Shown piece by piece: positions 1-38,879 of a stretch of DNA of 39,878 nucleotides. Below the pieces are notes generated by a model, which made no database searches, was not told the DNA's origin, and saw only the letters and a program-made list of their open reading frames with translations. The stretch's first letter is position 1. Each line of letters begins with the position of its first letter. Both the position numbers and the translations under genes were made by a program. The DNA comes from Candidatus Omnitrophota bacterium (lineage in GTDB: Bacteria > Omnitrophota > Gorgyraeia > Tantalellales > Tantalellaceae): NCBI GenBank assembly GCA_030631915.1, contig DAOVKF010000001.1, forward strand, positions 1-39,878. The letters run 5' to 3'.

Positions 1-2
1 AC

Positions 3-548
3 CTTTCCGAGACGGCCCAAAAGTATATTGCCGGGATATTGAAACATGCGCCGGAGATAACGTTCGTGTGCAACCAGTGGGTGAACTCATACAAGCGTCT
101 GGTGCCGGGGTATGAAGCGCCTGTTTATATATGCTGGGCGCAGCGCAACAGGAGTTCCCTGGTAAGGGTGCCGATGTATAAGCCGGGCAAGGAAAAGGCT
201 ACAAGGATTGAATTCCGCTCGCCCGACCCGGCCTGCAACCCGTACCTTGCTTTCGCGTGCATGCTCGCCGCTGGTTTTAAGGGGATGGAAGAGAAAAGTT
301 CTCTTGCTGAACCGATGGAAAGGGACGTTTATCATCTTGCGCCGGAAGAATTGAGCGAACTGGGCGTGGGATGCCTTCCCGGAAGCCTGATCGAGGCGAT
401 CGAGATCGCGGAAGGGAGCCGGTTGTTAAAAGACACCCTGGGCGACCATATATTCAACAACCTTCTCAAGAGCAAGAAGATAGAGTGGGATGAGTATCGC
501 CAAAGGGTGCATGGATACGAAATAGCGACGTATTTACCCGTACTATGA
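3..548 (+). CDS. glnA: glutamine synthetase type I, C-terminal part (5' end lies outside the window)
   Basis: The frame is open from position 3 (LSETAQKYIAGILKHAPEITFV...). It carries GS-I motifs: NRSSLVRVP, KATRIEFRSPDPACNPYLAF. Stop is TGA at 546-548. Confidence 0.9.
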   Translation, partial: LSETAQKYIAGILKHAPEITFVCNQWVNSYKRLVPGYEAPVYICWAQRNRSSLVRVPMYKPGKEKATRIEFRSPDPACNPYLAFACMLAAGFKGMEEKSSLAEPMERDVYHLAPEELSELGVGCLPGSLIEAIEIAEGSRLLKDTLGDHIFNNLLKSKKIEWDEYRQRVHGYEIATYLPVL

Positions 549-1264
549 GTGCTATGAGCAGTAAGAGATCCGGAAAAGATTATCTGGAAACGTTGAACAG
601 GATAAGCAGGGCCATAACCTCTGATCTTTACCTGGAGGATATCCTGAAGCTCATCGTGAATTTGACCGCCAATGTCATGAACGCCAAGATATGTTCTCTG
701 TGGCTACTGGACACAGAGACCGGTGAACTCAGGATAAGGGCGACGCAGGCGATGAGCAGGGAATATCTGAAGGAGAGAACGTTAAAAGTGGGGGAAGGCA
801 TCGTCGGAATGGCCGCGCAGGAGAAGAAGCCGGTGGTTATTCCCGACGTCCTGAAAGACAAACGGTATAAAGAAAAGACCCTTGCGGAAAAAGAGAACCT
901 GGTCTCAATGCTCAGCGTCCCGATGATCGAGAAAGACAGGGTCATGGGAGTTATAAACACATATACGGTCAATGAGCATAAGTTCACGAAGAGCGAGATC
1001 GAACTTTTAAGCATTGTGGCGGACCAGGCCGCAGTGGCCATTAAGAACACGGAACTGCTTGTGCAGACAAAAGTGATACAGGAAGAACTCGAGACCAGGA
1101 AAAAGGTGGAAAAGGCGAAAGGCATGCTGATGAAAGAACAGGATCTGTCGGAAGAGGAAGCGTATAAACTGATAAGAAAAGCCAGCATGGACAAGCGTAT
1201 CTCAATGAAAGAGATCGCCGAGGCCATAATACTTTCTTCCGAGATCAGCGGCAAAAAAGGATAA
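545..1264 (+). CDS. GAF-domain + ANTAR-domain RNA-binding (antiterminator-type) regulator
   Basis: ATGA start/stop overlap with glnA. The N-terminal part looks like a GAF domain (ICSLWLLD...GEGIVGMAA...VPMI..DRVMGVIN). The C-terminal part looks like ANTAR (KVEKAKGMLMKEQDLSEEEAYKLIRKASMDKRISMKEIAEAII). Confidence 0.85.
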   Translation: MSAMSSKRSGKDYLETLNRISRAITSDLYLEDILKLIVNLTANVMNAKICSLWLLDTETGELRIRATQAMSREYLKERTLKVGEGIVGMAAQEKKPVVIPDVLKDKRYKEKTLAEKENLVSMLSVPMIEKDRVMGVINTYTVNEHKFTKSEIELLSIVADQAAVAIKNTELLVQTKVIQEELETRKKVEKAKGMLMKEQDLSEEEAYKLIRKASMDKRISMKEIAEAIILSSEISGKKG

Positions 1265-1371
1265 ACAGAATATACCCGGGACAGAGGCTGTTACAAAGGA
1301 CGATGACGCCCGAGCCGTAAAACGGGTTCTTATTCAGCGCCCGGTGAAGCGAGCGCGACATTAAGGCACAG

Positions 1372-1415
1372 ACGCCCTTTTTAAGCATTGAAAGCTTGAA
1401 AAGGGCGTTTTTTTT
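1372..1415 (+). terminator. strong intrinsic terminator between the GAF-ANTAR gene and the sigma gene
   Basis: A 15-bp stem (ACGCCCTTTTTAAGC / GCTTGAAAAGGGCGT) with a 7-nt loop, followed by T8. Its 5' arm is overlapped by a small hairpin AAGGC-ACAGAC-GCC(c)TT at 1363-1379. Confidence 0.8.
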
Positions 1416-1434
1416 CAAGGGGAGGGGGAGCCGC

Positions 1435-1959
1435 ATGGAATATGAAAATCTGGTAGACAGGCTGTCGCCTAAAATAAAGGCCATATCAAGAAAAGTTAAC
1501 AGGAGATATTCGTACTGCGATGAGAATGATTTTTACCAGGAAGCTATTCTGCATCTCTGGATGCAGTTCCAGCAGGGCGGACTGAGGGAAAAGACGGACA
1601 GTTACATCCTCCAGGGGTGTTATTATTTCCTGAAGAATTATATCCGGAAGTTATGCAAAAGCGTCGATAACAATTCGGTCAGCATTTACAGCGTGATCGA
1701 TGAAAACGGCCTTACTATCGAAGATACCATCGCCTCCGGCGCCTATATTGCGGAAACCGAATCCGTGGAAATTTATCTGCTCCTGGACGAGTCCGAGGAA
1801 CGGTTTACGGAAAGGGAAAAGAATATTTTTTACTATCAGCTGGAAGGCTTTACCACAAGAGAGATAGGCGAAAAGATCGGGGTCTCCCATGTCATGGTCG
1901 TAAAGACCGGGAGCAGGATCCGGCAGAAATGCACGGCGCTCAGGGAAGAGCTTATTTGA
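1435..1959 (+). CDS. sigma-70 family (ECF-like) RNA polymerase sigma factor
   Basis: ATG at 1435 is preceded by GGGGAGGGGGAG. The ORF-track start at 1396 lies inside the terminator. Region-2-like YQEAILHLW and region-4 HTH EREKNIFYYQLEGFTTREIGEKIGVSHVMV are present. Confidence 0.75.
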   Translation: MEYENLVDRLSPKIKAISRKVNRRYSYCDENDFYQEAILHLWMQFQQGGLREKTDSYILQGCYYFLKNYIRKLCKSVDNNSVSIYSVIDENGLTIEDTIASGAYIAETESVEIYLLLDESEERFTEREKNIFYYQLEGFTTREIGEKIGVSHVMVVKTGSRIRQKCTALREELI

Positions 1960-2187: not shown

Positions 2188-3000
2188 ATGGGCAGGACAA
2201 AAAGGACGATCGTTTCGGCGGTCTTGACGGCAGTTATGGCTGTCGTTGTTTCCGCGGGCCCCGGCGCTTCTTATGCGCTGGATCTTAACGGGGAATGGCT
2301 GCCGGAAAAGCCGGAATGGGCTCCGGATATTTCTTTCAGCACCACGTTTCTTACAAAGTATATCTGGAGAGGGCAGAATCTCGGGGATGACCCGGTGATG
2401 CAGCCTGATCTTTCCATGTCCAAATGTGGCCTTACCCTGGATATCTGGGGAAGTTATGATACGGGGACGGGAGATGAACTGACCGAACTGGACTATACGA
2501 TAGACTACACCTTTAATGTCGGTGAAATGGCGGAAAAACTGGATATGGGGAGTATGGGAGTTCTGGATCCCTTGAGCCTTTCCGCGGGTTATACATATTA
2601 TACTTTTCCGAATGTGGACTGGGACAGCGAGGGGTTTGATACGCACGAGGTCTATCTGGGGTGCGCCTATGATATCCTTCTGCAGCCGTCTTTCACCTGG
2701 TACTGGGATGTTGACACAGGCCATGGCTGTTATTATACGGCCGGCATAGGGCACACGTTCGAGTTTGACGGAGGCATTTCCGCGGGGCTTGGCATGACAG
2801 CCGCGTATAATGACGAACAGTGGACGGACAGGTCCGGGTGGAGCGACATGGTTTTTTCCGGTGACGTCACTATCCCGTTCTTCACTTATTTTACGGTCAC
2901 ACCGAGCGTCGCGTATTCGGTCGTGCTGGACAGGGACACCTATAATGACGCGCAAAGCAATGAATTTTACGGAGGAGTTTCCATAGGTTTCGCGTATTGA
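2188..3000 (+). CDS. secreted outer-membrane beta-barrel porin-like protein (resembles TorF/Gcw_chp-type putative porins)
   Basis: RBS AAAGGAGGGG. Signal peptide ...VVVSAGPGASYA. YIWRGQNLG motif, alternating aromatic/Gly-rich strands, and a C-terminal ...GVSIGFAY. The family call is from memory of motifs only. Confidence 0.6.
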   Translation: MGRTKRTIVSAVLTAVMAVVVSAGPGASYALDLNGEWLPEKPEWAPDISFSTTFLTKYIWRGQNLGDDPVMQPDLSMSKCGLTLDIWGSYDTGTGDELTELDYTIDYTFNVGEMAEKLDMGSMGVLDPLSLSAGYTYYTFPNVDWDSEGFDTHEVYLGCAYDILLQPSFTWYWDVDTGHGCYYTAGIGHTFEFDGGISAGLGMTAAYNDEQWTDRSGWSDMVFSGDVTIPFFTYFTVTPSVAYSVVLDRDTYNDAQSNEFYGGVSIGFAY

Positions 3001-3030: not shown

Positions 3031-4386
3031 ATGGGGTTGTTGAAAAAGACATTAAAAATACTCCCCTTGCTGGCGGTCGGGACCTCGGCCGCGGCATGGG
3101 GGGATGAACCGACTGCCGCGAGTAACGCAGTGGCGATAGATACTGTGTGGACGCTGGTGGCGGCATTCCTTGTATTCTTTATGCAGCCCGGGTTCGCGAT
3201 GGTCGAGACCGGTTTTACAAGGGCGAAGAACGCGGCCAACATCCTGATGAAGAATCTTATGGATTTCTGTATAGGGTCGATCGCTTTCTGGCTGGTCGGG
3301 TTCGGCATAATGTTCGGAGCAAGCGCTCTGGGTCTTTTTGGAACGAACGGATTTTTCTTAAGCAGCGCGAATGCTTCTACGGGTGACGGATTGTGGCAGT
3401 TCGCTTACTGGATGTTCCAGGTGGTCTTCGCTGCCACAGCGGCGACGATCGTTTCCGGGGCAATGGCTGAAAGGACAAAGTTTCCCGCGTATCTGATCTA
3501 CTCGTTCTTTATCTGCGCTTTGATCTATCCCATAGTGGGCCACTGGATCTGGGGAGGCGGATGGCTTGCGGGTAAGGGCATGGTGGACTTTGCCGGTTCC
3601 ACGGTGGTCCACTCCGTCGGCGGATGGGCAGGCCTGGCAGGCGCGATAGTCCTCGGGCCGAGGCTGGGAAAATATAATAAGAACGGAAGCTCCAACGCTA
3701 TACCCGGGCATAATATACCTTTAGCCGCTTTAGGCGTGTTTATCCTCTGGTTTGGATGGTTTGGCTTTAACGCGGGCAGCACTACGTCCGGCACGAATCT
3801 GAGCATTGCCGTCATCGCGGTGACCACCAATCTGGCGGCGGCGGCGGCAGCCATTACTGCCATGTTCACGGCCTGGGCAAGGTTCGGGAAACCGGATACC
3901 AGCATGGCTTTGAACGGCGCTCTGGCCGGGCTTGTGGCTATAACCGCGCCCTGTGCGAGCGTTTCTCCTTTGAGCGCCGTTATCATCGGTGCCATAGCGG
4001 GGGTAATCGTCGTTCTCAGTGTCGAGCTTCTGGACAAAGTGTTTCATATTGACGATCCTGTGGGCGCGATATCGGTTCACGGGGTTTGCGGCGCGTTCGG
4101 AACGCTTTCCGTGGGCCTTTTTGCCGAAGCAGTGTATGGAGAGGCCAGCGGAATCGGGGCTGTCAACGGGCTCTTCTTTGGAGGCGGATTATCGCAGTTT
4201 TTCACACAGTTATTAGGCGTGGTGTCGGTATTCGCCTGGGTGTTCGGCACGGCCCTGCTCCTTTTTCACGTTATCAAAAAGACCGTGGGGCTCAGGGCTT
4301 CCGATGAAGAGCAGTTAAAAGGACTGGATATCGGTGAGCACGGCATGGAGGCGTATGCCGGATTCCAGATATTTACCACGCAGTAA
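3031..4386 (+). CDS. amtB: ammonium transporter (Amt family) with signal peptide
   Basis: Typical Amt motifs: [57 protein letters not shown]. Confidence 0.95.
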
Positions 4387-4457: not shown

Positions 4458-4799
4458 ATGAAGCTTGTAATCGCGATGATTCAACCGCACAAGCTGCCGG
4501 ACGTGAAGAAAGCGCTTTATGACGCTGAAGTTTACAAGATGACAGTTACCAATGCCCTGGGCTGCGGACAGCAGAAAGGTTTTTCCGAAACCTATCGCGG
4601 GGTGGTCACGGAAGTGAATCTTCTAAAGAAGATAAGACTGGAGGTCGCGGTAAACGAGGATTTTGTCCAGCCGGCAATAGAGGCGATCATAAACGGCGCG
4701 AGGACAGGCAAGATTGGCGACGGAAAGATCTTTGTCCTGGACCTTCCGGAATGCGTAAGGATAAGAACCGGTGAAAAAGGATCCGCGGCGATCGGCTAA
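4458..4799 (+). CDS. glnK: P-II nitrogen regulatory protein, full-length T-loop
   Basis: 112 aa, RBS AAGGAGGGA. T-loop is [16 protein letters not shown] with a Tyr. C-terminal motif [11 protein letters not shown]...RIRTGE. Lies immediately downstream of amtB. Confidence 0.9.
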
Positions 4800-4888: not shown

Positions 4889-5209
4889 ATGAAAAAGATC
4901 GAATGCATAATCCGTTCAGAGATGCTGAAAGGACTGAAAGAGGCCTTGAGACTGGCCGGTGTCGGGGGGATGACCATTACCGAAGTCAAAGGATTCGGAA
5001 GCGAGGCTACACGGCCGGATGCTTATCTGTTCCTGCCCAAGACCAAGGTTGAAATATATGCCGCTGATGAACAGGTGCAGGAGCTGGCCGCAGCGGTTAT
5101 TGATACCTGCCGCACGGGTGAATTAGGTGACGGCAAGATCATTGTTTCGCCGATGGATGAATGTATCCGGATAAGGACGGGCCAGAGAGGTGACGAGGCG
5201 ATATTTTAA
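4889..5209 (+). CDS. P-II family paralog with shortened, divergent T-loop
   Basis: MKKIECII... start is 6 nt after GGGAGGA, so the ORF-track start at 4829 is an upstream extension. [17 protein letters not shown] replaces the canonical [37 protein letters not shown] is retained. Confidence 0.8.
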   Translation: [106 protein letters not shown]

Positions 5210-5264: not shown

Positions 5265-6095
5265 ATGCGGATCAGGCATATGGTGGAAAGCGACCTGCCG
5301 GCTGTTTTGCGCATGGCGTCCGGGGAGGGATGGGTATCCGACATAACCGAGTTCCGGATCTTTATAGAGTTTAATCCATTTGGCTGTTTCATCTGTGCGA
5401 TGGACGGACGGATCCTCGGTTCCATTATGACGTTCTGCCATGCCGAAAGCGCCTGGGTAGGCAACTTTATTGTTTCTAAAGAGTATCGAGGGAGAGGCAT
5501 CGGCAGGAGACTTCTATCGCAGGCGATCGAATATCTGGACAAAAAGAAGAAACAGATCTATGTGAATGCTGCGGATGACGCAAGAAAATTGTACAAAAAA
5601 TTCGATTTCAAGGACGTTATATCGGTGGATCGATGGCAGGGTAAAGCGGTGAAACCCGCCGGGGATACGGAAAATCCCCGGGAAGCCATGTCCGACATTC
5701 TGAGCTTTATCGAGCTGGACGCGCGCATATGGGGGGATGAAAGGTTTGCCCTTATTTCGCGACTTTCATCATTGCGCCATTCTCGGTCATATTTCGGGCT
5801 TCCCGGATTTTTAATGTACGGTAATACGGGGGACAGTATCACTATCGGACCGTGGGAAGTAAAAGGCGGGGACGAAGAGATAGCGGAAAAACTGCTCATT
5901 TCCGGATTATCCGGACTAAGGCCTGGAAGTAAGATCCTTTTAGATGTTCCGGCAGTAAATGAAAAGGCGGCGAGGATCCTGGCCAGACATAAGTTCGAGA
6001 CCGTTGGGTCCACAATGTTTATGTGCCGCGGGAAATCGCCGCGGATCCATTTTAAAGAGATTTTCAGCCTTGCCACAATGGGTTCGATGGGGTAA
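5265..6095 (+). CDS. GNAT family N-acetyltransferase with C-terminal YitH-like extension
   Basis: Acetyl-CoA motif VSKEYRGRGIGRRLLSQAIEYL, and the length is typical of two-domain GNATs. Confidence 0.7.
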   Translation: MRIRHMVESDLPAVLRMASGEGWVSDITEFRIFIEFNPFGCFICAMDGRILGSIMTFCHAESAWVGNFIVSKEYRGRGIGRRLLSQAIEYLDKKKKQIYVNAADDARKLYKKFDFKDVISVDRWQGKAVKPAGDTENPREAMSDILSFIELDARIWGDERFALISRLSSLRHSRSYFGLPGFLMYGNTGDSITIGPWEVKGGDEEIAEKLLISGLSGLRPGSKILLDVPAVNEKAARILARHKFETVGSTMFMCRGKSPRIHFKEIFSLATMGSMG

Positions 6096-6134: not shown

Positions 6135-6163
6135 TTGACAAATCGGGCAGGAAGTGATAAACT
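6135..6163 (+). promoter_or_regulatory. sigma-70-type promoter candidate for the gltB leader
   Basis: TTGACA (6135-6140), 17-nt spacer, TAAACT (6158-6163). Confidence 0.5.
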
Positions 6164-6184
6164 TAATAGTGTTAGGCAATGAGG

Positions 6185-6218
6185 CCCCTGGATACTGTGC
6201 AGTTCCAGGGGTTTTTTT
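6185..6218 (+). terminator. intrinsic terminator T1 in the GNAT-gltB spacer
   Basis: CCCCTGGA...TCCAGGGG stem followed by T7. The hairpin GGC-AATGAG-GCC (6175-6186) overlaps its 5' arm. Confidence 0.75.
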
Positions 6219-6247
6219 ATGCTTCGCCTCCCAAGGGGGATGAAGCA

Positions 6248-6291
6248 GCTCCAGGGACGGCGCAGGACCGGTAAAGGCAAAGAAGCCCTTT
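6248..6291 (+). promoter_or_regulatory. candidate ANTAR-type dual hexaloop hairpin (P1 6248-6263, P2 6273-6291)
   Basis: P1 is GCTCC-AGGGAC-GGCGC with one internal mismatch. P2 is AAAGGC-AAAGAA-GCC(c)TTT. Both loops have A at position 1 and G at position 4. The P2 3' arm is part of the terminator T2 5' arm. Confidence 0.4.
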
Positions 6292-6330
6292 TGAAGCTAA
6301 GAACAAGCTTTGAAGGGCTTTTTTTGTTTT
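6283..6330 (+). terminator. intrinsic terminator T2 about 50 nt upstream of gltB
   Basis: AAGCCCTTTTGAAGCT / AGCTTTGAAGGGCTT stem with a 7-nt loop, followed by TTTTTTTGTTTTT. The sequence is related to the terminator at 1372-1415. Confidence 0.75.
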
Positions 6331-6379: not shown

Positions 6380-9300
6380 GTGCGCGAAATGAAGAACAAT
6401 GGTTTACCGGAAAAACAGGGCCTTTATGATCCGCGGTTCGAACACGACAGCTGCGGCGTGGGGTTTGTCTGCGATGTAAAGGGTAAAAAATCCAATGAAA
6501 TAATAAGGAAAGCTATAGAGGTCCTTGAAAACCTGAGCCACCGCGGCGCGGTCGGCGCTGATCCAAAGACGGGCGACGGCGCCGGGATACTGTTCCAGAT
6601 ACCGCATGAGTTCTATCTCCGCGTATGCGCTGATACAGGTATTGACCTGCCCCCTTCCGGCAGATATGGCACGGGACTCGTGTTCCTGCCGGCTGATGCC
6701 GGGGAACGCCGGTTCTGTGAAGATACTTTTGGGCGCGTGATCAGAGAAGAGGGACAGTTTTTGCTCGGGTGGCGCGCAGTGCCGGTAGACGATTCGATCA
6801 TAGGTAAAGGCGCAAGAGACACGCAGCCTGTGATAAAACAGATCTTCATCGCCCGGGACAAAGGGATCGACGAGCAGCTTGTTTTCGAACGTAAACTTTA
6901 TGTTATCAGGAAGAGGGTGGAGAATACGGTCCGTTCTTCGAGGATCCGACAGAAGAGTTTTTTCTATATCACCAGTGTTTCGTCAAGGACGGTCAGTTAC
7001 AAGGGGCTGTTAATGCCGGGCCAGGTGAAGCAATATTATCCTGATCTCCGGGACAAGGGGATAAAAAGCGCGCTCGCGATGGTACATTCGCGATACAGCA
7101 CCAATACGTTCCCAACCTGGGACCTGGCCCAGCCGTTCCGATTTCTCGCGCATAACGGGGAGATCAATACTTTAAGGGGGAATATTAACTGGTTCCGCGC
7201 GCGGGAAAGGCTGCTGGAAAGCAGGCTTTTCGGCGATGACATACGGAAGATCAAACCCGTTATCGTCGAAGGTGGCAGCGATTCCGCTATAATCGACAAT
7301 GTTTTCGAGCTTCTGGTCCTCTCGGGCAGATCACTTCCGCACGCGATGATGATGCTTATACCCGGCGCCTGGGAACACGACAGACTCCTGGACGAGGAGG
7401 TCCGGGATTTTTATAAATACCATGCCTGTTTCATGGAACCCTGGGACGGCCCCGCGGCCATAGCTTTCACTGATGGAAGGAGCATAGGGGCTGTGCTGGA
7501 CAGGAACGGCCTTCGTCCTGCGCGTTACATTGTAACCAAAAAGGGCTTTGTCGTAATGGCTTCTGAGGCCGGGGTGCTGAATATCGATCCGTCCGATATC
7601 AGGCTTTCCGGAAGACTGGAGCCGGGCAAAATGTTTTTGATCGATACCGGGACCGGCCGCATTGTCGATGACACCGAGATAAAAAAAGAAGTTTCCACCC
7701 GCCGCCCTTACGGCATGTGGAACAAAGAGAACATGGTTGAACTCGATGGTCTTCCTGACGCGGGGAAAGATTCCCCGGGAATACCGGATATTTTTACTTA
7801 TTTGAAAGCGTTCGGTTATTCCCGTGAGGACCTGAAAATGATCATCGGTCCCATGGCTGAACACGGGACAGAACCGACCGGGTCAATGGGCAATGACATG
7901 CCTCATGCTTTTCTGTCCAAAAAACCCCAGTTGCTTTATAATTATTTCAAGCAGCTGTTCGCGCAGGTCACAAACCCCGCTATTGACCCCATCAGGGAAG
8001 AGATGGTCATGAGTGTTGAAAGTTATGCCGGCGCTCAGAGAAATGTCCTGGATGAAACTCCCCGGCATTCCCGTAAGTTAAAGATAAAGAACCCGATCCT
8101 TTGTGATGAACAGCTTGAAAAGATCCGCGCTATCGATGAAAACGGGTTTAACACAAAGACCATTTCCCTGCTTTTCAGTGTCTCCGACAAGGAGGAGTTC
8201 ATTAAAACACTGGATAGAGTATGTGAAGACTCTGTTTCCGCGATACAGCAGGGATATACTTTTATAATCCTGAGCGACCGCGGCGTAAATGATAAACTCG
8301 CGGCCCTGCCCGTTCTTCTGGCCACAAGCGCGGTGCACCATCATCTTGTGAGGAACGGGATGCGGACGCAGATAGGCATAATGGTTGAAAGCGCGGAACC
8401 CCGAGAAGTACACCATTTCGCTCTTTTATTCGGCTATGGCGCGGACTGCGTGAATCCGTATCTTGCTTATAAAGCGGTCGAGTATCATGTAAAAGAGGGA
8501 CAGGTGCGGCTGGATACTGAAACAGCTCTGAAAAATTACAAAAAAGCCGTGGATAAAGGGATCTTGAAGATACTTTCGAAAATGGGTATATCGACTCTGC
8601 GGAGTTACAGGGGGGCCCAGATATTCGAGGCCCTTGGGCTGAACGAAGACGTTGTTAAAAGGTATTTTACCGGAACGGTATCCAGGATCGGCGGCGCGGG
8701 CCTGGACGTGATCGCAAAAGAGACGGTTTCCAGGCACAAAGAAGCGTATCCTGAGAACAAGAACCGGGAGAAACCCGGTCTGGCCACGGGCGGTATATAC
8801 CAGTGGAAACGGGACGGTGAGTTCCATTTGTGGCGGCCCGAAAGCATTGCCGCGCTCCAGGATTCTGTCAGAAAAGGGGATTACGAACGGTATAAAGAAT
8901 TCGCGCGGCTCATCAACGATCAAACGGGAAACCCCGCGACGTTACGGAGTTTACTTAAATTCAGGAAAACAGACCCCGTGCCGCTTGAAGAGGTCGAACC
9001 GGTCGAGGAGATCGTCAAACGGTTCGCCACCGGCGCCATGAGTTTCGGGTCCATAAGTAAAAGCGCGCATGAATCAATAGCTATCGCGATGAACCGGCTC
9101 GGGGCGAGGTCCAATACAGGTGAAGGCGGCGAGGATCCGGCGCGTTTTGCCGCGCTCCCGAACCATGACTCCGCGCGGAGCGCGGTAAAACAGGTCGCTT
9201 CGGGAAGGTTCGGCGTGACCACGAACTATCTTGTCAACGCCGATGAAATTCAGATAAAGATAGCCCAGGGCGCGAAACCGGGCGAAGGCGGCCAGCTTCC

Positions 9301-29386: not shown

Positions 29387-29412
29387 TTTATAAGAACGAT
29401 AAAAGGAGCAGT

Positions 29413-31026: not shown

Positions 31027-32579
31027 TGGCAGAACAGGACGGACGAAAAGGCATACTGGTCGTTGATTTCGGGTCACAGTATGTCCAGCTTATCGCGAGA
31101 CGCGTGAGGGAGAACCGCGTGCGTTCCGTCGTGGAGTCGCCCGCGGTATCCGTTGAAAGGATAAAAGAGATCAATCCCCGCGGCATCATATTCTCCGGCG
31201 GGCCGTCAAGCGTCTATGATAAGGGCGCTCCGGGGCTTGACCGCCGCATACTTGACCTCGGCATCCCGGTCCTCGGCATATGTTACGGGATGCAGGTCAT
31301 CGGGAAACTGGCCGGAGGCAGGATCAGAAAAAGCGGCCGGAGAGAATACGGCCGCGCAATAGTGCGCTTCCGCGGAAAGGATCCGCTGTTTACGGGGATA
31401 GCCCCTGAAAGCGTGACCTGGATGAGCCATCGTGACAAGGTAGAGACGCTCCCGAAAGGGTTCCGTTCCATTGCGCGCAGCGAGAACACTCCGTGCGCGG
31501 CGTTCTATAACCCGGAAAAGAACGTCTACGGTGTCCAGTTCCATCCCGAGGTCGCGCATACGGCAGACGGCGGGAAAATGGTCAGGAACTTTCTTTTTAA
31601 CATATGCGGGTGCAAAAGGACCTGGACCATGAGATCCTTTATAAAAAAGAAGGTCACGGACATACGGGAGCAGGCAGGCGGCCGGGACGTTGTGCTGGGG
31701 CTGTCCGGAGGGGTCGATTCCACTGTATGCGCCGTTCTCCTGCACAGGGCCCTGGGGAAAAGGCTTCATTGTGTGTTTGTGAATAACGGGCTTCTGCGCA
31801 GGAACGAGGCTGAAAGGGTGGAGCGGCTGTTCAGGAAGAATATCAGGCTGGATCTCAGGGTCGTGGACGCTGAAAAAAGGTTCCTGAAAGCCCTTAAAGG
31901 AGTGGAAGACCCTGAGAAAAAGAGGAAAATAATCGGCAGGACGTTTATCCGCGTTTTTGAGGAGAGCGCCGGAAAGATAAAGAACGCGGTATTTCTGGCG
32001 CAGGGGACCCTCTATCCGGATGTGATCGAGTCCCGGTCCTTTTTCGGCGGGCCGAGCAAGACCATAAAATCACATCACAATGTGGGGGGCCTTCCCCGCA
32101 AGATGGGGCTTAAGCTGATGGAGCCCCTCAGGGACCTGTTCAAGGACGAGGTCAGAGAAGTGGGCAGGGAGCTGGGCCTGGCAAGAGAGGTCACTGACCG
32201 GCAGCCGTTCCCCGGCCCGGGCCTCGCGGTAAGGATAATGGGAGAGGTTACCGGGGAAAGGCTGGATACGCTCAGGGCCGCGGACTGGATTATCATTGAT
32301 GTGGCTAAAAAGAGGAATATTTATTACAGGACCTGGCAGATCTTCGGTGTTTTTCTTCCGGTGAAAAGCGTGGGCGTGATGGGTGACAGCCGGACATATG
32401 AGGATACGATCGCGATACGCGCGGTGACCAGTGTCGACGGTATGACCGCTGATTGGGCCAGGGTCCCCTACGATGTGCTTGAGGAGATGTCAGGCAGGAT
32501 AATCAATGAGGTAGAGGGGGTCAACAGGGTGGTTTTTGACATAAGTTCCAAACCGCCGAGCACTATAGAGTGGGAGTGA
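31026..32579 (+). CDS. guaA: GMP synthase (glutamine-hydrolysing)
   Basis: TAATG stop/start overlap with pyrG, with AAGGAG 8 nt upstream. ILVVDFGSQY, GICYGMQ, and the P-loop LGLSGGVDS. Confidence 0.95.
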   Translation: MAEQDGRKGILVVDFGSQYVQLIARRVRENRVRSVVESPAVSVERIKEINPRGIIFSGGPSSVYDKGAPGLDRRILDLGIPVLGICYGMQVIGKLAGGRIRKSGRREYGRAIVRFRGKDPLFTGIAPESVTWMSHRDKVETLPKGFRSIARSENTPCAAFYNPEKNVYGVQFHPEVAHTADGGKMVRNFLFNICGCKRTWTMRSFIKKKVTDIREQAGGRDVVLGLSGGVDSTVCAVLLHRALGKRLHCVFVNNGLLRRNEAERVERLFRKNIRLDLRVVDAEKRFLKALKGVEDPEKKRKIIGRTFIRVFEESAGKIKNAVFLAQGTLYPDVIESRSFFGGPSKTIKSHHNVGGLPRKMGLKLMEPLRDLFKDEVREVGRELGLAREVTDRQPFPGPGLAVRIMGEVTGERLDTLRAADWIIIDVAKKRNIYYRTWQIFGVFLPVKSVGVMGDSRTYEDTIAIRAVTSVDGMTADWARVPYDVLEEMSGRIINEVEGVNRVVFDISSKPPSTIEWE

Positions 32580-32614
32580 CATCTGACTTTTGAAACTTAT
32601 CGGTTTCTACGATC

Positions 32615-35497
32615 ATGAAATACGCGAGAATAGAAGTAAGAGACAGAAAGGGCATCTTTGACGCGGTGGCCGGGGGCCTGAAAAAAGATATCAGGGATCT
32701 CGGCGTAAAGGGCGTTAAGGATATCGAGTATATCCGGGTATACTCGGTCCGCGGGGACTTTTCCGGCAGGGATCTGCGCCGTATCGCCGAGGATATTCTT
32801 ACCGACAGGGTATCTCAGGAGTGCGGGTATCCCGGCGGGTTCGGGACGAGAAGTTCTAAGAACGCTCATGTGGTGGAGGTCGCGTATAACGCCGGTGTTA
32901 TGGACCCTGTCGAAGAGAGTGTGATAAAAGCCGTAAAGGACTCGGGGCTGACCGGGGTAAATTCTGTCACGACGTCAAAGAGATACGTTATCAAGGGCGC
33001 TCTCTCCGCGGGGCAGATCGATAAGATAACCGACAGGCTTCTTTATAACAGGGTCATACAGCATATCGTTACCCGCAGAGAGGACGAGAAGGCGGCCGCG
33101 CCTTACAGGTTCCGGCGCAGGGAGATCGACCTTATAAGCGCTGATGACAGGATCCTTCAGGGCATCAGCGCCCAAAGGCAGCTTTATCTTAGCCTGGCGG
33201 AGATGAAGGCCGTTCAGAAGCACTTCAAAAAGCTCGGCAGGAATCCCACGGACTGCGAGATCGAGACGCTCGCGCAGACATGGAGCGAACATTGCAAGCA
33301 TAAGACCATGATGGGGGCCGTCCGGTACAACGGCAGGAAGATAGGGAATCTCCTTAAAGAGACGGTGATGAAGGCGACCCGCGAGCTGGACAGGCCCTGG
33401 TGTGTTTCCGTGTTCAAGGATAACGCCGGTATTATCAGGTTCGATCCGGGGCACGATATCTGTTTCAAGGTAGAGACGCATAACCATCCTTCCGCGCTTG
33501 AACCGTATGGAGGCGCGGAAACAGGCATAGGCGGGGTGATACGCGATACCATGGGGACCGGACGAGGCGCCAGGCCCATTATCAACACGGATGTTTTCTG
33601 TTTCGGCGTTCCGGACATGCCGCTGTCGTCCGTCCCGAAAGGCGCGCTGCATCCCAAAAGGGTCCTTAAGGGCGTGGTAAGCGGTGTGCGTGATTACGGC
33701 AACAAGATGGGCATCCCCACGGTGAACGGAGCGGTTTGTTTTGACGGAAGATATACCGGTAACCCGCTGGTCTTCTGCGGTAACGTCGGGATCTTGCCCC
33801 GCAGGTTCTCCACGAAAAAAGTTTCACCGGGCGATCTTATCGTGGCCGTCGGCGGAAGGACCGGCCGGGACGGCATTCACGGCGCGACATTCTCCTCCGC
33901 CGAACTTACCGTTGAGTCTGAGGCTGTTTCCGGGACGGCCGTTCAGATAGGGAACCCCATCACTGAAAAAAAGGTGGTGGACACGCTGCTGAAGGCGCGC
34001 GATCTCGGGCTTTACGCGGCTATTACCGACTGCGGCGCCGGAGGCTTTTCGAGCGCGGTAGGTGAGATGGGCAAGGATACAGGGGCCGAAGTGCATCTCG
34101 AAAAGGCGCCTCTCAAGTACAGGGGCCTGGAACCATGGGAAATATGGGTATCCGAAGCCCAGGAAAGGATGGTGCTCGCCGTAAAGAGGAAGGACCTGAA
34201 GCGGCTGATGAACGTTTTCCGGAGTGAGAACGTGGAGGCTACCGTTATCGGGAAGTTCACGAATACCGGAAAACTGCGCATCTATTTCAGGCGGCACTTA
34301 ATAGCCGATCTGGACATGTCTTTCATGCATGAAGGCCTTCCGCGTGTTACCCGTAAAGCCGTATGGAAACGCGGGAAAGAGGATAAAAGCATCCTTCCTC
34401 CGAAAAGGGCGGACCTGACACCGGATCTTTTGAACTTACTTTCAAGCTGGAACGTGTGCAGCAAGGAATGGATCATAAGGCAGTATGACCACGAAGTGCA
34501 GGGTGGAAGCGTGCTCAAGCCGCTCGTAGGGGTCAATAACGACGGCCCGTCCGACGCGTCGGTGACCAGGCCCCTGTTTGACAGCAATAAGGGGATCGCG
34601 CTGGCCAACGGGATCAATCCCTGTTACGGGGATATAGACCCTTACTGGATGGCAGCCGGCGCTATTGATGAAGCCCTGCGCCAGATCGTCGCGGTCGGGG
34701 GTACAGTGGAAAACATCGCGCTTCTTGACAATTTCTGCTGGGGCAATACGGAAAATCCCGACCAACTGGGGGGTCTTGTCCGCGCTTCACTGGCGTGTTA
34801 CGACATGGCAAAAGTATACAGGACACCGTTCATATCCGGTAAGGACAGTCTTAATAACGAGTTTAATACGGGGACAAAGACCGTATCCATACCGCCGACA
34901 TTATTGATATCAGCCATTGGTGTCATAGATGACGTTCGCAGGACGATCTCCCCTGATGTCAAGGGACCCGGCAGCCTGATCTATGTCGTCGGCAGGACCT
35001 TCCAGGAGATGGGAGGGTCGCAGTATTTCCGGGTAAAAAGGAAAAAGGGCGGTATGGTCCCGCGCGTCAGGCCGCATGGTTCACTGAGACTTATGAAAAA
35101 AGTAGCATCCGCCATAAAGGCGGGACTCGTTGCCTCGGCGCATGATTGTTCCGAGGGGGGTATTGCTGTCTGTTTAGCGGAGATGCTTTTTGCCGGCGGC
35201 TACGGCGCGGAGGTCTCACTTGAAAGGGTCCCTCGCGAGAGGTCCATAGACAGGGACGATGTGCTTCTTTTTTCAGAGTCAAACTCAAGGTTTGTGATAG
35301 AAGTCCCCGCGGAAAAGCAAAAAGCGTTTGAGGGTGCCATGAAAGGGGTCCCGTCAGGCCGGATCGGCCGTGTTTCAGAGGGCCGGGGACTGGTTATCAG
35401 GGGGCTCGGAGGCGGGAACGTTGTTAAAACGGATTGCGGCACGCTCAGGAACAGGTGGAAAAAACCGTTTGAGAGATTGATGCATGAACAAAGTTAA
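32615..35497 (+). CDS. purL: FGAM synthase II fused to two N-terminal PurS-like modules (PurS-PurS-PurL)
   Basis: Two PurS-like segments of about 85 aa (ARIEVRDRKGIFDAVAG...; VEVAYNAGVMDPVEESV...). These are followed by PurL motifs TLAQTWSEHCKHK and VETHNHPSALEPYGGA. Confidence 0.88.
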   Translation: MKYARIEVRDRKGIFDAVAGGLKKDIRDLGVKGVKDIEYIRVYSVRGDFSGRDLRRIAEDILTDRVSQECGYPGGFGTRSSKNAHVVEVAYNAGVMDPVEESVIKAVKDSGLTGVNSVTTSKRYVIKGALSAGQIDKITDRLLYNRVIQHIVTRREDEKAAAPYRFRRREIDLISADDRILQGISAQRQLYLSLAEMKAVQKHFKKLGRNPTDCEIETLAQTWSEHCKHKTMMGAVRYNGRKIGNLLKETVMKATRELDRPWCVSVFKDNAGIIRFDPGHDICFKVETHNHPSALEPYGGAETGIGGVIRDTMGTGRGARPIINTDVFCFGVPDMPLSSVPKGALHPKRVLKGVVSGVRDYGNKMGIPTVNGAVCFDGRYTGNPLVFCGNVGILPRRFSTKKVSPGDLIVAVGGRTGRDGIHGATFSSAELTVESEAVSGTAVQIGNPITEKKVVDTLLKARDLGLYAAITDCGAGGFSSAVGEMGKDTGAEVHLEKAPLKYRGLEPWEIWVSEAQERMVLAVKRKDLKRLMNVFRSENVEATVIGKFTNTGKLRIYFRRHLIADLDMSFMHEGLPRVTRKAVWKRGKEDKSILPPKRADLTPDLLNLLSSWNVCSKEWIIRQYDHEVQGGSVLKPLVGVNNDGPSDASVTRPLFDSNKGIALANGINPCYGDIDPYWMAAGAIDEALRQIVAVGGTVENIALLDNFCWGNTENPDQLGGLVRASLACYDMAKVYRTPFISGKDSLNNEFNTGTKTVSIPPTLLISAIGVIDDVRRTISPDVKGPGSLIYVVGRTFQEMGGSQYFRVKRKKGGMVPRVRPHGSLRLMKKVASAIKAGLVASAHDCSEGGIAVCLAEMLFAGGYGAEVSLERVPRERSIDRDDVLLFSESNSRFVIEVPAEKQKAFEGAMKGVPSGRIGRVSEGRGLVIRGLGGGNVVKTDCGTLRNRWKKPFERLMHEQS

Positions 35498-36278
35498 GAC
35501 GATCATACTGCGCACTGCCGGCACGAATTGCGACAGGGAAACCGCTTACGCGTTCCGCGCCGCGGGAGCTGAAGCGGACCTCGTGCATATAAACACTTTG
35601 CTGAAACAAAAGGCCGCTCTTGCGGAGTATCACATACTGGCCATACCCGGCGGGTTCACATACGGCGATGATGTGGCCAGCGGCAAGGTCTTCGCGAACG
35701 AGCTGAAGGCCGGCTTAAAGGAACAACTGTCCGGGTTCCTCGCCGAAGGCAGGCTTATCATCGGGATCTGTAACGGGTTTCAGGTGCTTGTAAAGATGGG
35801 GCTTTTGCCGGGTGCCAAGAAAAGGCAGGGCTGTAAAATAGAGGCCACGCTCAGCCTCAACGATTCGGGCAGGTTCGAGGACAGATGGGTATATCTTAAA
35901 AGGCCGGGCCGCGATATTTGCGTTTGGACCAGGGGCCTTCCGGAGGCCATATATGTTCCGGTGGCCCATGCCGAAGGTAAGTTCATACCAAAAGACGCCG
36001 GTGTGCTTGAAGCCCTGCGGAAGAACGGCCAGATAGTGTTCCGCTACGCGCGTAAGGAAGGAGGATCGCCCGGTTATCCCGGGAATCCCAACGGTTCAGT
36101 GGACGATATAGCCGGTGTTTGCGATCCCACCGGAAGGATACTCGGGTTGATGCCGCATCCCGAACGGCATGTGACGTATGTGCAGCATCCCAACTGGCGG
36201 CGTTTCGGCCGGAAGACGGAAGAAATGGGCATAGGCCTGAGGATCTTCGAGAACGGCGTGAAATTCGCGCGTGGTTAG
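35484..36278 (+). CDS. purQ: FGAM synthase I (glutaminase subunit)
   Basis: 14-nt overlap with purL. GICNGFQVL catalytic Cys and MPHPER. Confidence 0.9.
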   Translation: MNKVKTIILRTAGTNCDRETAYAFRAAGAEADLVHINTLLKQKAALAEYHILAIPGGFTYGDDVASGKVFANELKAGLKEQLSGFLAEGRLIIGICNGFQVLVKMGLLPGAKKRQGCKIEATLSLNDSGRFEDRWVYLKRPGRDICVWTRGLPEAIYVPVAHAEGKFIPKDAGVLEALRKNGQIVFRYARKEGGSPGYPGNPNGSVDDIAGVCDPTGRILGLMPHPERHVTYVQHPNWRRFGRKTEEMGIGLRIFENGVKFARG

Positions 36279-36308: not shown

Positions 36309-36337
36309 GTTGAAAAGTGCGGGGCTATTTTGTAAAA
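36309..36337 (+). promoter_or_regulatory. promoter candidate for tRNA-Glu and downstream genes
   Basis: TTGAAA (36309-36314), 17-nt spacer, TAAAAT (36332-36337). Confidence 0.55.
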
Positions 36338-36374
36338 TATAGCTCCGGAAAATATGTAAATTACTGACTTGCGC

Positions 36375-36452
36375 GACCCCATCGTCTAGTCAGGTCTAGG
36401 ACATCAGATTTTCATTCTGACGACCGGGGTTCGAATCCCCGTGGGGTCGCCA
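36375..36452 (+). tRNA. tRNA-Glu (anticodon UUC), CCA encoded
   Basis: Cloverleaf folded by hand. Acceptor GACCCCA/TGGGGTC, anticodon stem TCAGA/TCTGA with loop TTTTCAT, T-arm CGGGG-TTCGAAT-CCCCG. Closely resembles E. coli tRNA-Glu. Confidence 0.9.
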
Positions 36453-36472
36453 TAATTAGCCGGATTGGAACC

Positions 36473-37003
36473 ATGGATATAGAACAACTCTGGGAAAAGG
36501 CAAAAGAGAAGACAGAAGTCGTCAGGGGAAGGGTAAAAGGCCTTTCCACTTTCAGCCAGACAGATGTCCCGTATGTCTTCCTGGCCGAATCCGCCGTGAA
36601 CGAGGGCAATACAGTGGTCCGGAGGGGCAAGGTCCTTGTCGAAAGACCCATGGTCATTCTTCCGCAGGACATGCCGCAGTTCGAGGGCTTTGATTTTGAG
36701 GAAGACCTGGACATCAGCCAGGAACTTATCCAGACATTTTTCCTGATGAGAGGCATACGCTTCCCGTCGCTCAAATACAATAATATTGTGCAGGAGATCG
36801 ACGTGGACGAAAGAGCGCTTTCAAAATGTGTCGAAAAACACAAAAAACACCTTGAGAGAGCAGAAGATGTCAGCACGGCTCTTGTGCTGGGCCCGGAGGA
36901 TTGCTGGCAGTTCTCCCTGCTTTTCTATATGGCGTCCCTTGTGGGACGGTGCGCCCGAACGGATATCATGAACCTGTTGAACAGGATGAATAAGGACGAA
37001 TAG
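36473..37003 (+). CDS. hypothetical protein, no family recognised
   Basis: 176-aa ORF with a protein-like composition. Starts 20 nt after the tRNA 3' end and ends 19 nt before glmS. No motif I can name. Confidence 0.55.
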   Translation: MDIEQLWEKAKEKTEVVRGRVKGLSTFSQTDVPYVFLAESAVNEGNTVVRRGKVLVERPMVILPQDMPQFEGFDFEEDLDISQELIQTFFLMRGIRFPSLKYNNIVQEIDVDERALSKCVEKHKKHLERAEDVSTALVLGPEDCWQFSLLFYMASLVGRCARTDIMNLLNRMNKDE

Positions 37004-37022
37004 GCCGCGGGAGGGGAAAAAC

Positions 37023-38879
37023 ATGTGCGGGATCATAGGCTATACGGGCCGGAGAAATGCCGAGCAGGTCCTTGTCAAGGGGTTGTCCCGCCTGGAATAC
37101 CGGGGATACGATTCAGCCGGGATAGCTGTCATAAACAAGGGAGATATCCAGATAAGGAAAAAACAGGGCAAACTTTCCGTTTTAATGGATGAGCTGAGCC
37201 ATAACCCGGCGAAAGGGACGACAGGCATAGGCCACACGCGCTGGGCTACCCACGGGGTGCCGAATGACGTGAACGCGCACCCGCATGTCGACTCCGGCAG
37301 GAATATCGCGATAGTCCACAACGGGATCATCGAGAACTATAAGGAGATCAGGAAAAGGCTCCAGGCGAAAGGGTATGAGTTTGTTTCGGGAACAGACAGT
37401 GAGAACATCGCGCATCTTGTTTCAGATTGTTACGCGGGCGATCTTTACAAAGCGGTAAAAAAAGCCGTAAGCATGCTGAAGGGCTCTTTTGCGATAGTCG
37501 TTATTCACCGGGAAGAACCGGGAAGGATAGTGGGAGCGAGGAAGGACAGCCCCCTGGTCGCAGGGCTCGGAGACGGTGAATATTTTCTCGCCAGCGATAT
37601 CCCCGCGGTCCTGGAATATACCAGGGACGTCATTTATGTTGAGAACGGGGAGATCGTGGACATAAAGGACGGGGGCATCACGATATACGGATCCGGAGGA
37701 AAAATAGAGCGAAGGGACCCGACGGCCATCAAATGGGATATATCCCAGGCCGAAAAAAAAGGTTATAAGCATTTTATGCTGAAAGAGATATTTGAGCAGC
37801 CCGGTATAATACGCAATATGCTTGCCGAAAGGGTAAGAAAAGGAAAAATAAAGTTTGAAGAACTGGCGATACCGGAAAAGGATCTGAAAAGAATAAAGAG
37901 GATCTCTGTGGTAGCCTGCGGCACAGCCTATCATGCCGGATTGATCGGAAAGTATCTTATTGAAAAGATCGCGAGGGTCCCTGTCTGGGTGGATCAGGCA
38001 AGTGAGTTTCGTTACCGGGATCCGCTGGTGGACAAGGATACGCTGGTAATAGTCATATCCCAGTCAGGGGAGACAGCGGATACCCTGGCGGCATTGAGGG
38101 AGGCAAAGAGAAAGGGGGCCGCGGTCCTGGCCGTGTGCAACGTTCTTGGCAGTTCCATCGCCAGGGAAGCCGACGGCGTGATCTATACTCACGCGGGACC
38201 GGAAATAGCGGTTGCGTCGACAAAGGCCTATACGGCGCAGATCGCGATACTGCATCTCTTTACGTATTTTTTTGCCGGGATAAAAGGGACAGTAGGCAAA
38301 GAGGAAAAGGGTTTTTTAAGGGAATTCAGGAAATTGCCCGGAAATCTGGACAAACTGCTGGGGCCGTATCACTCCGCGAAGAACAGGCTTGCCGGGTATG
38401 CCGCGGAATTCCACGAATATTATCTTGCAAGAAACAATAAGAGCTGTTTTCTTTATCTTGCCAGGAACATTAACTATCCCAATGCCCTGGAAGGGGCGTT
38501 GAAACTGAAAGAGATATCATATATCAGCGCTGAGGGGTACCCGGCCGGGGAGATGAAGCACGGCCCCATTGCATTAATAGACGAAAACCCCTGGGTGGTC
38601 TGCGTTGCGACCAACGCGCAGACGCATGAGAAGATGCTATCCAACATCCAGGAGATCAAGGCAAGGGGCGGTATAGTGATCGCAATAGTCTCTGAAGGAG
38701 ACGACCTGCTCCGGGATGAAAGCATTAACTACGCCATCGAGATACCCCGTGTTCCCGAAATATTCTCTCCCGAACTGGTCGCTGTTCCGTTACAGCTTCT
38801 GGCGTACTATGTGGCCGGTGAGTTCGGGTACGACATAGACAAGCCGCGCAACCTGGCCAAGTCGGTGACCGTCGAGTAA
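37023..38879 (+). CDS. glmS: glutamine--fructose-6-phosphate aminotransferase
   Basis: MCGIIGY N-terminus, two SIS domains, and a C-terminal ...LAKSVTVE. Confidence 0.95.
   Translation: MCGIIGYTGRRNAEQVLVKGLSRLEYRGYDSAGIAVINKGDIQIRKKQGKLSVLMDELSHNPAKGTTGIGHTRWATHGVPNDVNAHPHVDSGRNIAIVHNGIIENYKEIRKRLQAKGYEFVSGTDSENIAHLVSDCYAGDLYKAVKKAVSMLKGSFAIVVIHREEPGRIVGARKDSPLVAGLGDGEYFLASDIPAVLEYTRDVIYVENGEIVDIKDGGITIYGSGGKIERRDPTAIKWDISQAEKKGYKHFMLKEIFEQPGIIRNMLAERVRKGKIKFEELAIPEKDLKRIKRISVVACGTAYHAGLIGKYLIEKIARVPVWVDQASEFRYRDPLVDKDTLVIVISQSGETADTLAALREAKRKGAAVLAVCNVLGSSIAREADGVIYTHAGPEIAVASTKAYTAQIAILHLFTYFFAGIKGTVGKEEKGFLREFRKLPGNLDKLLGPYHSAKNRLAGYAAEFHEYYLARNNKSCFLYLARNINYPNALEGALKLKEISYISAEGYPAGEMKHGPIALIDENPWVVCVATNAQTHEKMLSNIQEIKARGGIVIAIVSEGDDLLRDESINYAIEIPRVPEIFSPELVAVPLQLLAYYVAGEFGYDIDKPRNLAKSVTVE

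Follow-up and report, generated by a model that had tools for sequence, protein, structure and literature searches.

A cluster of nitrogen-assimilation genes and glutamine-dependent enzymes in Omnitrophota, with predicted control by GAF-ANTAR attenuation

The known nitrogen regulons of ANTAR-domain proteins include those of EutV, NasR, AmiR and Geobacter GnfR, and further ones are predicted, e.g., in Desulfotomaculum acetoxidans. The RNA targets of ANTAR proteins are hexaloop hairpins with A in position 1 and G in position 4 of the loop, the 3' side of which overlaps the 5' arm of an intrinsic terminator; the predicted ANTAR regulons consist mostly of nitrogen genes, and the GAF-ANTAR proteins were uncharacterised as of 2012 (PMC3369931). 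The present analysis deals with a 39,878-nucleotide stretch of the genome of a Candidatus Omnitrophota bacterium (contig DAOVKF010000001.1, hereinafter the window), which encodes a GAF-ANTAR protein directly after glutamine synthetase and carries genes for ammonium uptake, glutamate synthesis and seven glutamine amidotransferases. This clustering is real, is not a product of chance and is typical of the lineage. With moderate confidence, the window is best interpreted as a lineage-typical "glutamine node" supercluster, in which an attenuation-controlled nitrogen regulon on the left adjoins a string of glutamine-spending genes on the right.

The window shares with the ANTAR nitrogen regulons the ANTAR output domain, the A1/G4 hexaloop overlapping a terminator, and targets that encode P-II proteins, an ammonium transporter and enzymes of glutamate and glutamine metabolism. 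It differs from them in that sensing falls to a GAF domain, where they have a receiver or NIT domain, translation of the regulator gene is coupled to that of the glutamine synthetase gene, and the regulon of the relatives extends to carAB, purF strings, nadE and DUF1846. Co-directional, coupled genes including purF, purL/Q/S and carAB are also found in the purEKBCSQLFMNHD and pyr operons of Bacillus subtilis and in carAB of Escherichia coli; however, those operons group a whole pathway, whereas the window groups the glutamine-dependent steps of two pathways together with the GMP and CTP synthases. The enteric and Gram-positive nitrogen clusters (glnA-ntrBC, amtB-glnK and gltBD, under NtrC/sigma-54, GlnR or TnrA) resemble the window in the amtB-glnK pairing and in the co-regulation of glutamine synthetase, glutamate synthase and ammonium uptake by nitrogen status, which in the window is predicted; unlike them, the window has no sigma-54-type promoter or NtrBC, shows apparent attenuation and includes amidotransferases. 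The aromatic (aro-trp-his) supraoperon of B. subtilis similarly combines several metabolic units in one co-directional array with internal promoters and terminators but is built around one end-product family and not a shared nitrogen donor. The parts of the window are of known kinds, i.e., ANTAR nitrogen regulons and coupled biosynthetic operons. The literature searched contains no description of the amidotransferase clustering, of this organising principle or of the apparent breadth of the regulon.

Genes were identified with NCBIfam and Pfam profiles and by catalytic motifs, and were compared with loci (labelled Lnnn) that were collected by anchoring on purF, the GAF-ANTAR gene or gluS2, the gene of an FMN-binding glutamate synthase family protein described below. 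The right half of the window contains the following features.

23472-23500, plus strand: promoter-like site TTTACA-17-TATAAT ahead of carA, with a 55-nt leader and no attenuator
23555-24637, plus strand: carA, class I motif GICLGHQ
24680-27934, plus strand: carB, identified by NCBIfam and Pfam profiles
27912-29315, plus strand: purF, with the motif KCGVFG after an 11-residue propeptide
29413-31026, plus strand: pyrG, motif GICLGMQ
31026-32579, plus strand: guaA, motif GICYGMQ
32615-35497, plus strand: purS-purL fusion, identified by NCBIfam and Pfam profiles
35484-36278, plus strand: purQ, motif GICNGFQ
36375-36452, plus strand: tRNA-Glu(UUC), with its own promoter-like site at 36310-36338
36473-37003, plus strand: 176-residue protein with no family match, 19 nt upstream of glmS
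37023-38879, plus strand: glmS, glutamine-fructose-6-phosphate amidotransferase (NF001484, 807.8 bits), N-terminus MCGI; followed by the start of rsmI

The seven genes from carA to purQ (23555-36278) are co-directional, are separated by gaps of -23 to +97 nt and have no terminator between them, so that they probably form a single 12.7-kb operon made up exclusively of genes for glutamine-dependent enzymes. The string covers all the glutamine-dependent steps in the synthesis of purines and pyrimidines, and further pur or pyr genes are absent from it. The junctions reported in the initial annotation are exact, i.e., TAATG at pyrG/guaA, a 23-nt overlap at carB/purF and a 14-nt overlap at purL/purQ. 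That annotation counted eight amidotransferase systems, of which seven are bona fide, with an intact catalytic cysteine. CarA, PyrG, GuaA and PurQ contain the class I (triad) nucleophile elbow G-x-C-x-G-x-Q and reach equivalog-level NCBIfam scores; the N-terminal cysteine nucleophile of class II (Ntn) enzymes is present in PurF, GlmS and the GltB protein of the left half, in which it follows DS at residue 25 (DSCGVG). The eighth, PurF', has no such cysteine. Given about 12-16 amidotransferase genes in a genome of a few thousand genes, about 0.15 would be expected among the 28 genes of the window compared with the seven observed, so that chance appears to be no serious explanation. Of the common bacterial amidotransferases, the window lacks hisH, glutamine-dependent nadE, asnB, trpG/pabA and gatA; in relatives, hisH and nadE belong to the cluster.

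The closest Omnitrophota loci (L001, L002) have the carA-purQ order of the window, with an isocitrate dehydrogenase gene (icd) inserted between pyrG and guaA. In more distant Omnitrophota, the same members recur in a different order and lie a few bases apart. Shuffled orders are seen in L005, L008, L010, L015, L017, L026, L049, L091, L102, L153 and L164-L166, and the strings are shuffled yet tight in L010, L015, L017, L026, L049 and L091. Examples are as follows (carB2 and OMP are the window genes described below, or their counterparts).

L015: GAF-ANTAR, gdhA, guaA, purQ, purL, hisH, hisF, purF, DUF1846, sigE, unknown gene, amtB
L017: gdhA, oxidoreductase, carB2, guaA, purS, purQ, purL, purF, DUF1846, sigE, OMP, amtB, P-II, glnA, nadE, gltB
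L010: carB, carB2, guaA, purS, purQ, purL, purF, DUF1846, pyrG
L026: gltB, gltD, PPDK-like gene, pyrG, carA, carB, purF
L049: GAF-ANTAR, gdhA, carA, carB, glmS, purF, pyrG

The additions to the Omnitrophota strings comprise other users of glutamine (hisHF, glutamine-dependent nadE and glmS), suppliers of glutamate or 2-oxoglutarate (gdhA, icd, Re-citrate synthase and aconitase) and DUF1846. The purF-anchored loci of other phyla, mostly Thermodesulfobacteriota, contain carA-carB-purF only, and the control locus L047 has the classical order purB-purC-purS-purQ-purL-purF. Within about 20 kb of purF, the median number of amidotransferase systems is 3.5 in Omnitrophota loci of at least 15 kb vs 2 elsewhere (Mann-Whitney p 1e-6). 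The grouping of genes by their shared glutamine amide donor, which the initial annotation had put forward, is thus borne out, with the same membership recurring in shuffled Omnitrophota strings and other phyla showing only carAB-purF or a classical pur operon; the comparison of synteny across relatives that it had proposed finds the linkage conserved and the genes not dispersed.

Nucleotide synthesis accounts for five of the seven consumers, carA-carB-purF unaccompanied by the other genes is widespread among Thermodesulfobacteriota, and the carA promoter of the window has no nitrogen-type element, all of which is compatible with the right half being a nucleotide operon that balances purines and pyrimidines beside an ordinary glnA-amtB-gltBD cluster, the use of glutamine being incidental. 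This explanation appears unlikely given that the string has no pur or pyr gene other than those of amidotransferase systems; the 25 commonest Pfam families among the 86 unassigned flanking open reading frames of 16 Omnitrophota loci include none of purine or pyrimidine synthesis, although single occurrences are possible. The pathway-ordered pur operon of L047 provides a contrast, and the strings of the relatives take in hisHF, glutamine-dependent nadE, glmS, gdhA and icd and are headed by nitrogen-type attenuators.

Several further observations concern the composition of these strings. The order carA-carB-purF is widely found among Thermodesulfobacteriota, and a few other phyla have it as well (L011-L080); the smallest core of the cluster is therefore older than Omnitrophota. 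The carB genes of L026 (8344-9987) and L049 (3635-5290), whose strings include carA as well, are half as long as normal, at about 550 codons. In L037 (6704-9996, labelled Calescamantes), guaA is flanked by hisH and hisF, with purF coming next, another order that tracks amidotransferases and not pathways. The PurS-PurL fusion is found in the window and its closest relatives, and L010, L015 and L017 have separate purS, purQ and purL in another order and at about 33% identity. Short repeats, GTCATCCC.GC / CCGTCATYGYGAGG, are present in the spacers at 20046-20082 (PurF'/carB2) and 29330-29375 (purF/pyrG), and the 790-nt spacer that precedes carB2 in L005 is filled with similar GTCATCCCGAGCGAGCG repeats.

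The left half of the window encodes nitrogen assimilation and, as predicted here, its regulation.

1-548, plus strand: 3' part of glnA, type I glutamine synthetase (TIGR00653 GlnA, profile positions 297-461 of 462)
545-1264, plus strand: GAF-ANTAR regulator (Pfam GAF_2, 85 bits; ANTAR, 73 bits), the ATG of which overlaps the glnA stop codon (ATGA)
1365-1416, plus strand: attenuator T1, GGC-ACAGAC-GCC, overlapping a 16-bp terminator with a T-run, ahead of sigE, OMP, amtB and P-II
1435-1959, plus strand: sigE, extracytoplasmic function (ECF)-type sigma factor (TIGR02937; start from the contig gene call)
2188-3000, plus strand: secreted 270-residue protein (OMP), no Pfam or NCBIfam match
3031-4386, plus strand: amtB, ammonium transporter (TIGR00836, 472.7 bits)
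4458-4799, plus strand: P-II protein 1, GlnK-like (NF008111, 112.6 bits; Pfam P-II)
4889-5209, plus strand: P-II protein 2, divergent, 106 residues (NF008111, 82 bits; Pfam P-II)
5265-6095, plus strand: GNAT acetyltransferase (Pfam Acetyltransf_7/10/1/18)
6135-6330, plus strand: gltB leader, with a promoter-like site at 6135-6163 and two tandem attenuators
6175-6186, plus strand: gltB attenuator 1, GGC-AATGAG-GCC, overlapping a terminator, ahead of gltBD
6276-6287, plus strand: gltB attenuator 2, GGC-AAAGAA-GCC, overlapping a terminator, ahead of gltBD
6380-10921, plus strand: gltB, glutamate synthase large subunit, a class II amidotransferase (NF008730, 1790.9 bits)
10914-12359, plus strand: gltD, glutamate synthase small subunit (TIGR01317, 632.6 bits)
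12376-12485, plus strand: leader of the NuoEF/HoxU/gluS2 operon, with a promoter-like TTGACT-17-GATAAT followed by attenuator T3
12434, plus strand: attenuator T3, GAAC-AAAGAC-GTTC, overlapping a 16-bp terminator, ahead of the NuoEF/HoxU/gluS2 operon
12549-17195, plus strand: four coupled genes, NuoE-like, NuoF-like, HoxU/NuoG-N-like and gluS2

The initial annotation listed glnA, amtB and two P-II genes here; amtB and both P-II genes are complete, and of glnA only the last ~180 codons are present, the gene being truncated by the contig end (3-692 in L081). The GAF-ANTAR gene, the four attenuators, the ECF sigma factor and the NuoEF/gluS2 operon escaped that annotation, as did carB2 and the AbiEii/HTH pair discussed below.

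The product of 545-1264 has the architecture of an ANTAR-domain regulator, i.e., a sensory domain (GAF_2, residues 30-166) fused to a C-terminal ANTAR domain (residues 179-229, 73 bits vs a cutoff of 27.3). Each of the four elements of the window (at 1365, 6175, 6276 and 12434) lies in a plus-strand leader, and in each the 5' arm of the strong intrinsic terminator can alternatively fold into an A1/G4 hexaloop hairpin, in agreement with the ANTAR hexaloop and its terminator overlap. The tandem gltB attenuators are conserved, with differing stem sequences, in L087, L088 and L153. A relaxed scan for a hexaloop hairpin followed by a hairpin of -9 kcal/mol or stronger that ends at a T-run yields 41 intergenic matches in about 1.0 Mb of Omnitrophota-type loci vs 9 in 0.94 Mb of loci of other phyla. 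Among the matches with a gene within 400 nt, 35 of 36 precede genes of the nitrogen/amidotransferase set, a set in which the ECF sigma factor and unknown genes were counted solely for their conserved position; the background share is 40% (binomial p 3e-13) and is inflated because the loci were anchored on purF, GAF-ANTAR or gluS2.

The targets found by the scan include glnN, glnA, amtB, gltB, gdhA, nfnAB-gdhA, gluS2 and DUF1846, as well as a string of glutamate dehydrogenase, Re-citrate synthase, aconitase, isocitrate dehydrogenase and carA genes. Attenuators are located directly ahead of carA-carB(-purF) in L044, L102 and L003, and also head nfnAB-carAB-purF (L009), gltBD-carAB (L153) and carB2-DUF1846-PurF' (L164). 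The regulator gene itself shows a consistent context: in 77 metagenome loci anchored on the GAF-ANTAR protein, it directly follows a glutamine synthetase gene (type I or III) or, instead or in addition, directly precedes amtB, gltB, gdhA, glutamine-dependent nadE, gluS2, DUF1846 or purF, and three further contexts reached via gluS2 agree with these. Nitrogen control of the left half, and of the strings of the relatives, is well supported by this combination of predicted regulator and RNA elements.

In the mechanism proposed here, transcription of the left half would start at constitutive sigma-70-like promoters and run into intrinsic terminators, so that control would be exerted after initiation. 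The 5' arm of each terminator would alternatively fold as an A..G.. hexaloop hairpin, the recognition element of an ANTAR antiterminator. The most likely partner of these hairpins is the GAF-ANTAR protein, whose translation is coupled to that of glutamine synthetase and which would bind them in response to nitrogen status perceived by its GAF domain, as a guess through 2-oxoglutarate or glutamine as ligand; binding would let RNA polymerase read into sigE-OMP-amtB-glnK1-glnK2, gltBD and the NuoEF/HoxU/FMN-glutamate-synthase operon. In the right half, the presumed carA-purQ operon, followed by tRNA-Glu, the unknown gene and glmS, would solely spend glutamine amide nitrogen. Producers, sensors and consumers stay together despite changes of order; therefore, selection seems to favour co-expression of glutamine supply and demand.

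Other control elements were sought in the window. For sigma-54/NtrC control, 7 consensus matches were found vs 13.8 expected, none of them credible, and there are no NtrBC genes. A search against Rfam at E <= 1 over the window returned no glutamine riboswitch and no glmS ribozyme.

Some features of the left half call for separate comment. The order sigE-OMP-amtB recurs in L015, L017 and L099. The secreted 270-residue protein ends in GFAY and is kept between the ECF sigma factor gene and amtB, with homologues before amtB in L017 and L087; it may be an outer-membrane channel for ammonium uptake. The gluS2 product belongs to the FMN-binding glutamate synthase family and lacks an amidotransferase domain. 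Its conservation within Omnitrophota amounts to 82-91%, and no solved structure matches it at the sequence level. The NuoE/NuoF/HoxU/gluS2 module recurs in L164, and gluS2 follows GAF-ANTAR in L090, L111 and L166. Together with the NuoE-, NuoF- and HoxU-like partners, gluS2 may constitute an NADH-linked, ammonia-dependent glutamate-forming enzyme. An open reading frame of about 82 codons for a Fis-like helix-turn-helix (HTH) protein (GNQS.AA..LGINRNTL) is found between the gltB attenuators and gltB in L087, L088, L153 and L017 and is missing from the gltB leader of the window. A probable NfnAB transhydrogenase, consisting of a PyrK/NfnA-like protein (~283 residues) and a GltD-like protein (470 residues), is encoded in L101, L005, L008 and L009 behind ANTAR-type attenuators and ahead of gdhA, carA, carB2 or purF.

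The two halves of the window are separated by the following features.

17382-18637, plus strand: AbiEii nucleotidyltransferase toxin and its HTH partner (Pfam AbiEii, HTH_3)
18648-20045, minus strand: PurF', a PurF paralogue with the N-terminus MSGIFG (TIGR01134, 205 bits, below the cutoff of 350)
20083-23307, minus strand: carB2, a second full-length carbamoyl-phosphate synthase large subunit (NF003671, 1517.6 bits)
23420-23447, minus strand: promoter-like TTGAAA-16-TATTAT facing carB2, which aligns with the carA promoter of relatives

The AbiEii/HTH pair interrupts the nitrogen cluster as an insert of the toxin-antitoxin or abortive-infection type, unrelated to the nitrogen theme, and is preceded by a perfect TTGACA-17-TATAAT, a strong promoter-like site at 17365-17393. 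In L001, L003 and L009, carA is driven by a promoter of the form AGTTGAAATAC...TATAAT, the counterpart of which in the window, AGTTGAAA...TATTAT, is on the minus strand and faces carB2. The position of this promoter on the opposite strand suggests a local inversion of carB2-PurF', after which carA would have gained another promoter. By this account, the window is an exception among its relatives in that the inversion parted carA from its ancestral promoter region, leaving a new sigma-70-like start without an attenuator. The minus-strand carB2 leader does contain a GGGC-AAAGAG-GCCC hairpin, but the terminator is absent, and a lone hexaloop hairpin was not counted because such hairpins are too frequent, about 1 per 200 nt.

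The apparent inversion and the toxin-antitoxin insert show that rearrangement inside the window is ongoing, and long co-directional runs are general in Omnitrophota contigs; hence the clustering might reflect inherited or drifted synteny in small genomes, devoid of regulatory meaning. Such an origin has, in our estimate, a low probability: membership and few-base spacing are kept despite repeated reshuffling, which is not expected under passive inheritance, and the attenuators and the regulator gene travel with the gene set.

PurF' was described in the initial annotation as a relic. In fact, the gene is intact and belongs to a family of full-length proteins that are 77-96% identical across many contigs of Omnitrophota, Planctomycetota and others. 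It is 31% identical to the PurF of the window, and its closest solved structure is that of B. subtilis PurF (1ao0). The phosphoribosyl pyrophosphate (PRPP) loop and the four Fe-S cysteines are retained, whereas the nucleophile Cys1 is replaced in all nine aligned members, by serine in eight and by asparagine in one. Given this conservation and the replacement of Cys1 throughout the alignment, PurF' is not a relic but a conserved paralogue that probably does not hydrolyse glutamine; it may be an ammonia-using or regulatory form of PurF. The neighbouring carB2 product is 52% identical to that of carB, lacks a small subunit of its own and has orthologues at 78-82% identity in L005, L010, L017, L091 and L102. 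PurF' can in general be rejected as the glutaminase that would serve carB2, since it has no cysteine nucleophile and, in two relatives noted below, sits elsewhere.

The carB2/PurF' pair, or a trio with DUF1846, recurs in L112, L164 and L102. More generally, orphan carB2 is found beside DUF1846 and/or PurF' in the window, L091, L164, L165, L005, L010, L017 and L102. The gene order is carB2-DUF1846-PurF' in L164 and carB2-DUF1846-QRPTase-like in L165, and a QRPTase_N protein is encoded near PurF' in L083 and L085. DUF1846 lies 3-9 nt downstream of purF in L005, L010, L015, L017 and L091 and has its own ANTAR-type attenuator in L095 and L112; it is absent from the window. The associations among carB2, DUF1846, PurF' and QRPTase may represent an unrecognised PRPP/ammonia pathway.

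The very high conservation of PurF' and gluS2, which possibly reflects protein contacts, and the overlapping stop and start codons at several junctions point, indirectly, to another explanation, in which joint synthesis of the products at a single site lets them form a complex through which the amidotransferases receive glutamine or ammonia from glutamine synthetase. Glutamine is an abundant, freely diffusing metabolite, and no evidence of interaction was found, which makes such a complex very improbable.

Against the interpretation of the window as a nitrogen-controlled "glutamine node" stand several observations, to which the inflated background of the attenuator scan is to be added. The dual motif as published includes an upstream hexaloop, P1, that is not apparent at the four elements of the window, another difference from the described ANTAR regulons (dual hexaloops are clear and canonical in the relatives L087, L095 and L112), and Rfam at E <= 1 detects only the tRNA in the window and no listed ANTAR family. 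The anchoring of the comparison on purF, GAF-ANTAR and gluS2 leaves the frequency of Omnitrophota without this arrangement uncounted. In two relatives, PurF' lies beside glycogen and NAD-salvage genes, away from the cluster. No RNA run with the window sequence was detected among the sequencing runs searched, for which reason we infer the operon limits and the nitrogen response from the DNA. Above all, the control region of carA-purQ in the window contains a sigma-70-like promoter only, no attenuator having been found in the carA leader, so that nitrogen control of this string is unsupported in the window itself. The common regulation by nitrogen status proposed in the initial annotation is accordingly supported for the left half and the relatives, with their GAF-ANTAR proteins and attenuators, and not for carA-purQ of the window.

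The window matches almost end to end a European Nucleotide Archive metagenome scaffold of 39,960 bp (L081 being the source contig). One cold-seep DNA run is the sole run that contains nearly all of it (98% of sampled words), and four further runs have less than 10% of its words in common. The nearest genomic relatives of the purF (80% identity) and of other genes are metagenome-assembled genomes labelled Candidatus Omnitrophota. A metagenome scaffold with a depth of merely ~7-12x could be an assembler chimera of several organisms; this is hardly credible here because the depth is even, independent Logan contigs bridge the gluS2-AbiEii-HTH-purF' and carB2-carA junctions, and the same neighbourhoods recur on many independent contigs of other samples. 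The contig is treated as genuine.

A broader and more tentative reading, which we regard as possible and less probable than the supercluster itself, is that Omnitrophota possess a single attenuation-based "glutamine regulon", in which the GAF-ANTAR sensor, produced along with glutamine synthetase, would gate ammonium uptake, glutamine synthetase, glutamate synthase and glutamate dehydrogenase together with most glutamine spenders (carbamoyl-phosphate synthase, PurF, PurLQ, GuaA, PyrG, GlmS, HisHF and NadE), with carB2-DUF1846-PurF' as an ammonia-using side branch. If this is the case, nitrogen status would directly set the capacity for the synthesis of nucleotides, amino sugars, histidine and NAD.

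The organism is uncultivated, and the present value of these results lies mainly in annotation and in the generation of hypotheses. The nitrogen context of DUF1846, the cysteine-less PurF', the orphan CarB and the NuoEF-coupled FMN-glutamate-synthase protein narrows the search for their functions, and the GAF-ANTAR proteins acquire a concrete candidate regulon with defined predicted RNA sites and an unusually broad gene set. Operons are usually read as one pathway per unit; here, a phylum-level lineage sorts genes by their common nitrogen donor, which suggests that gene expression is the level at which the supply of glutamine amide nitrogen is matched to the demand for it.

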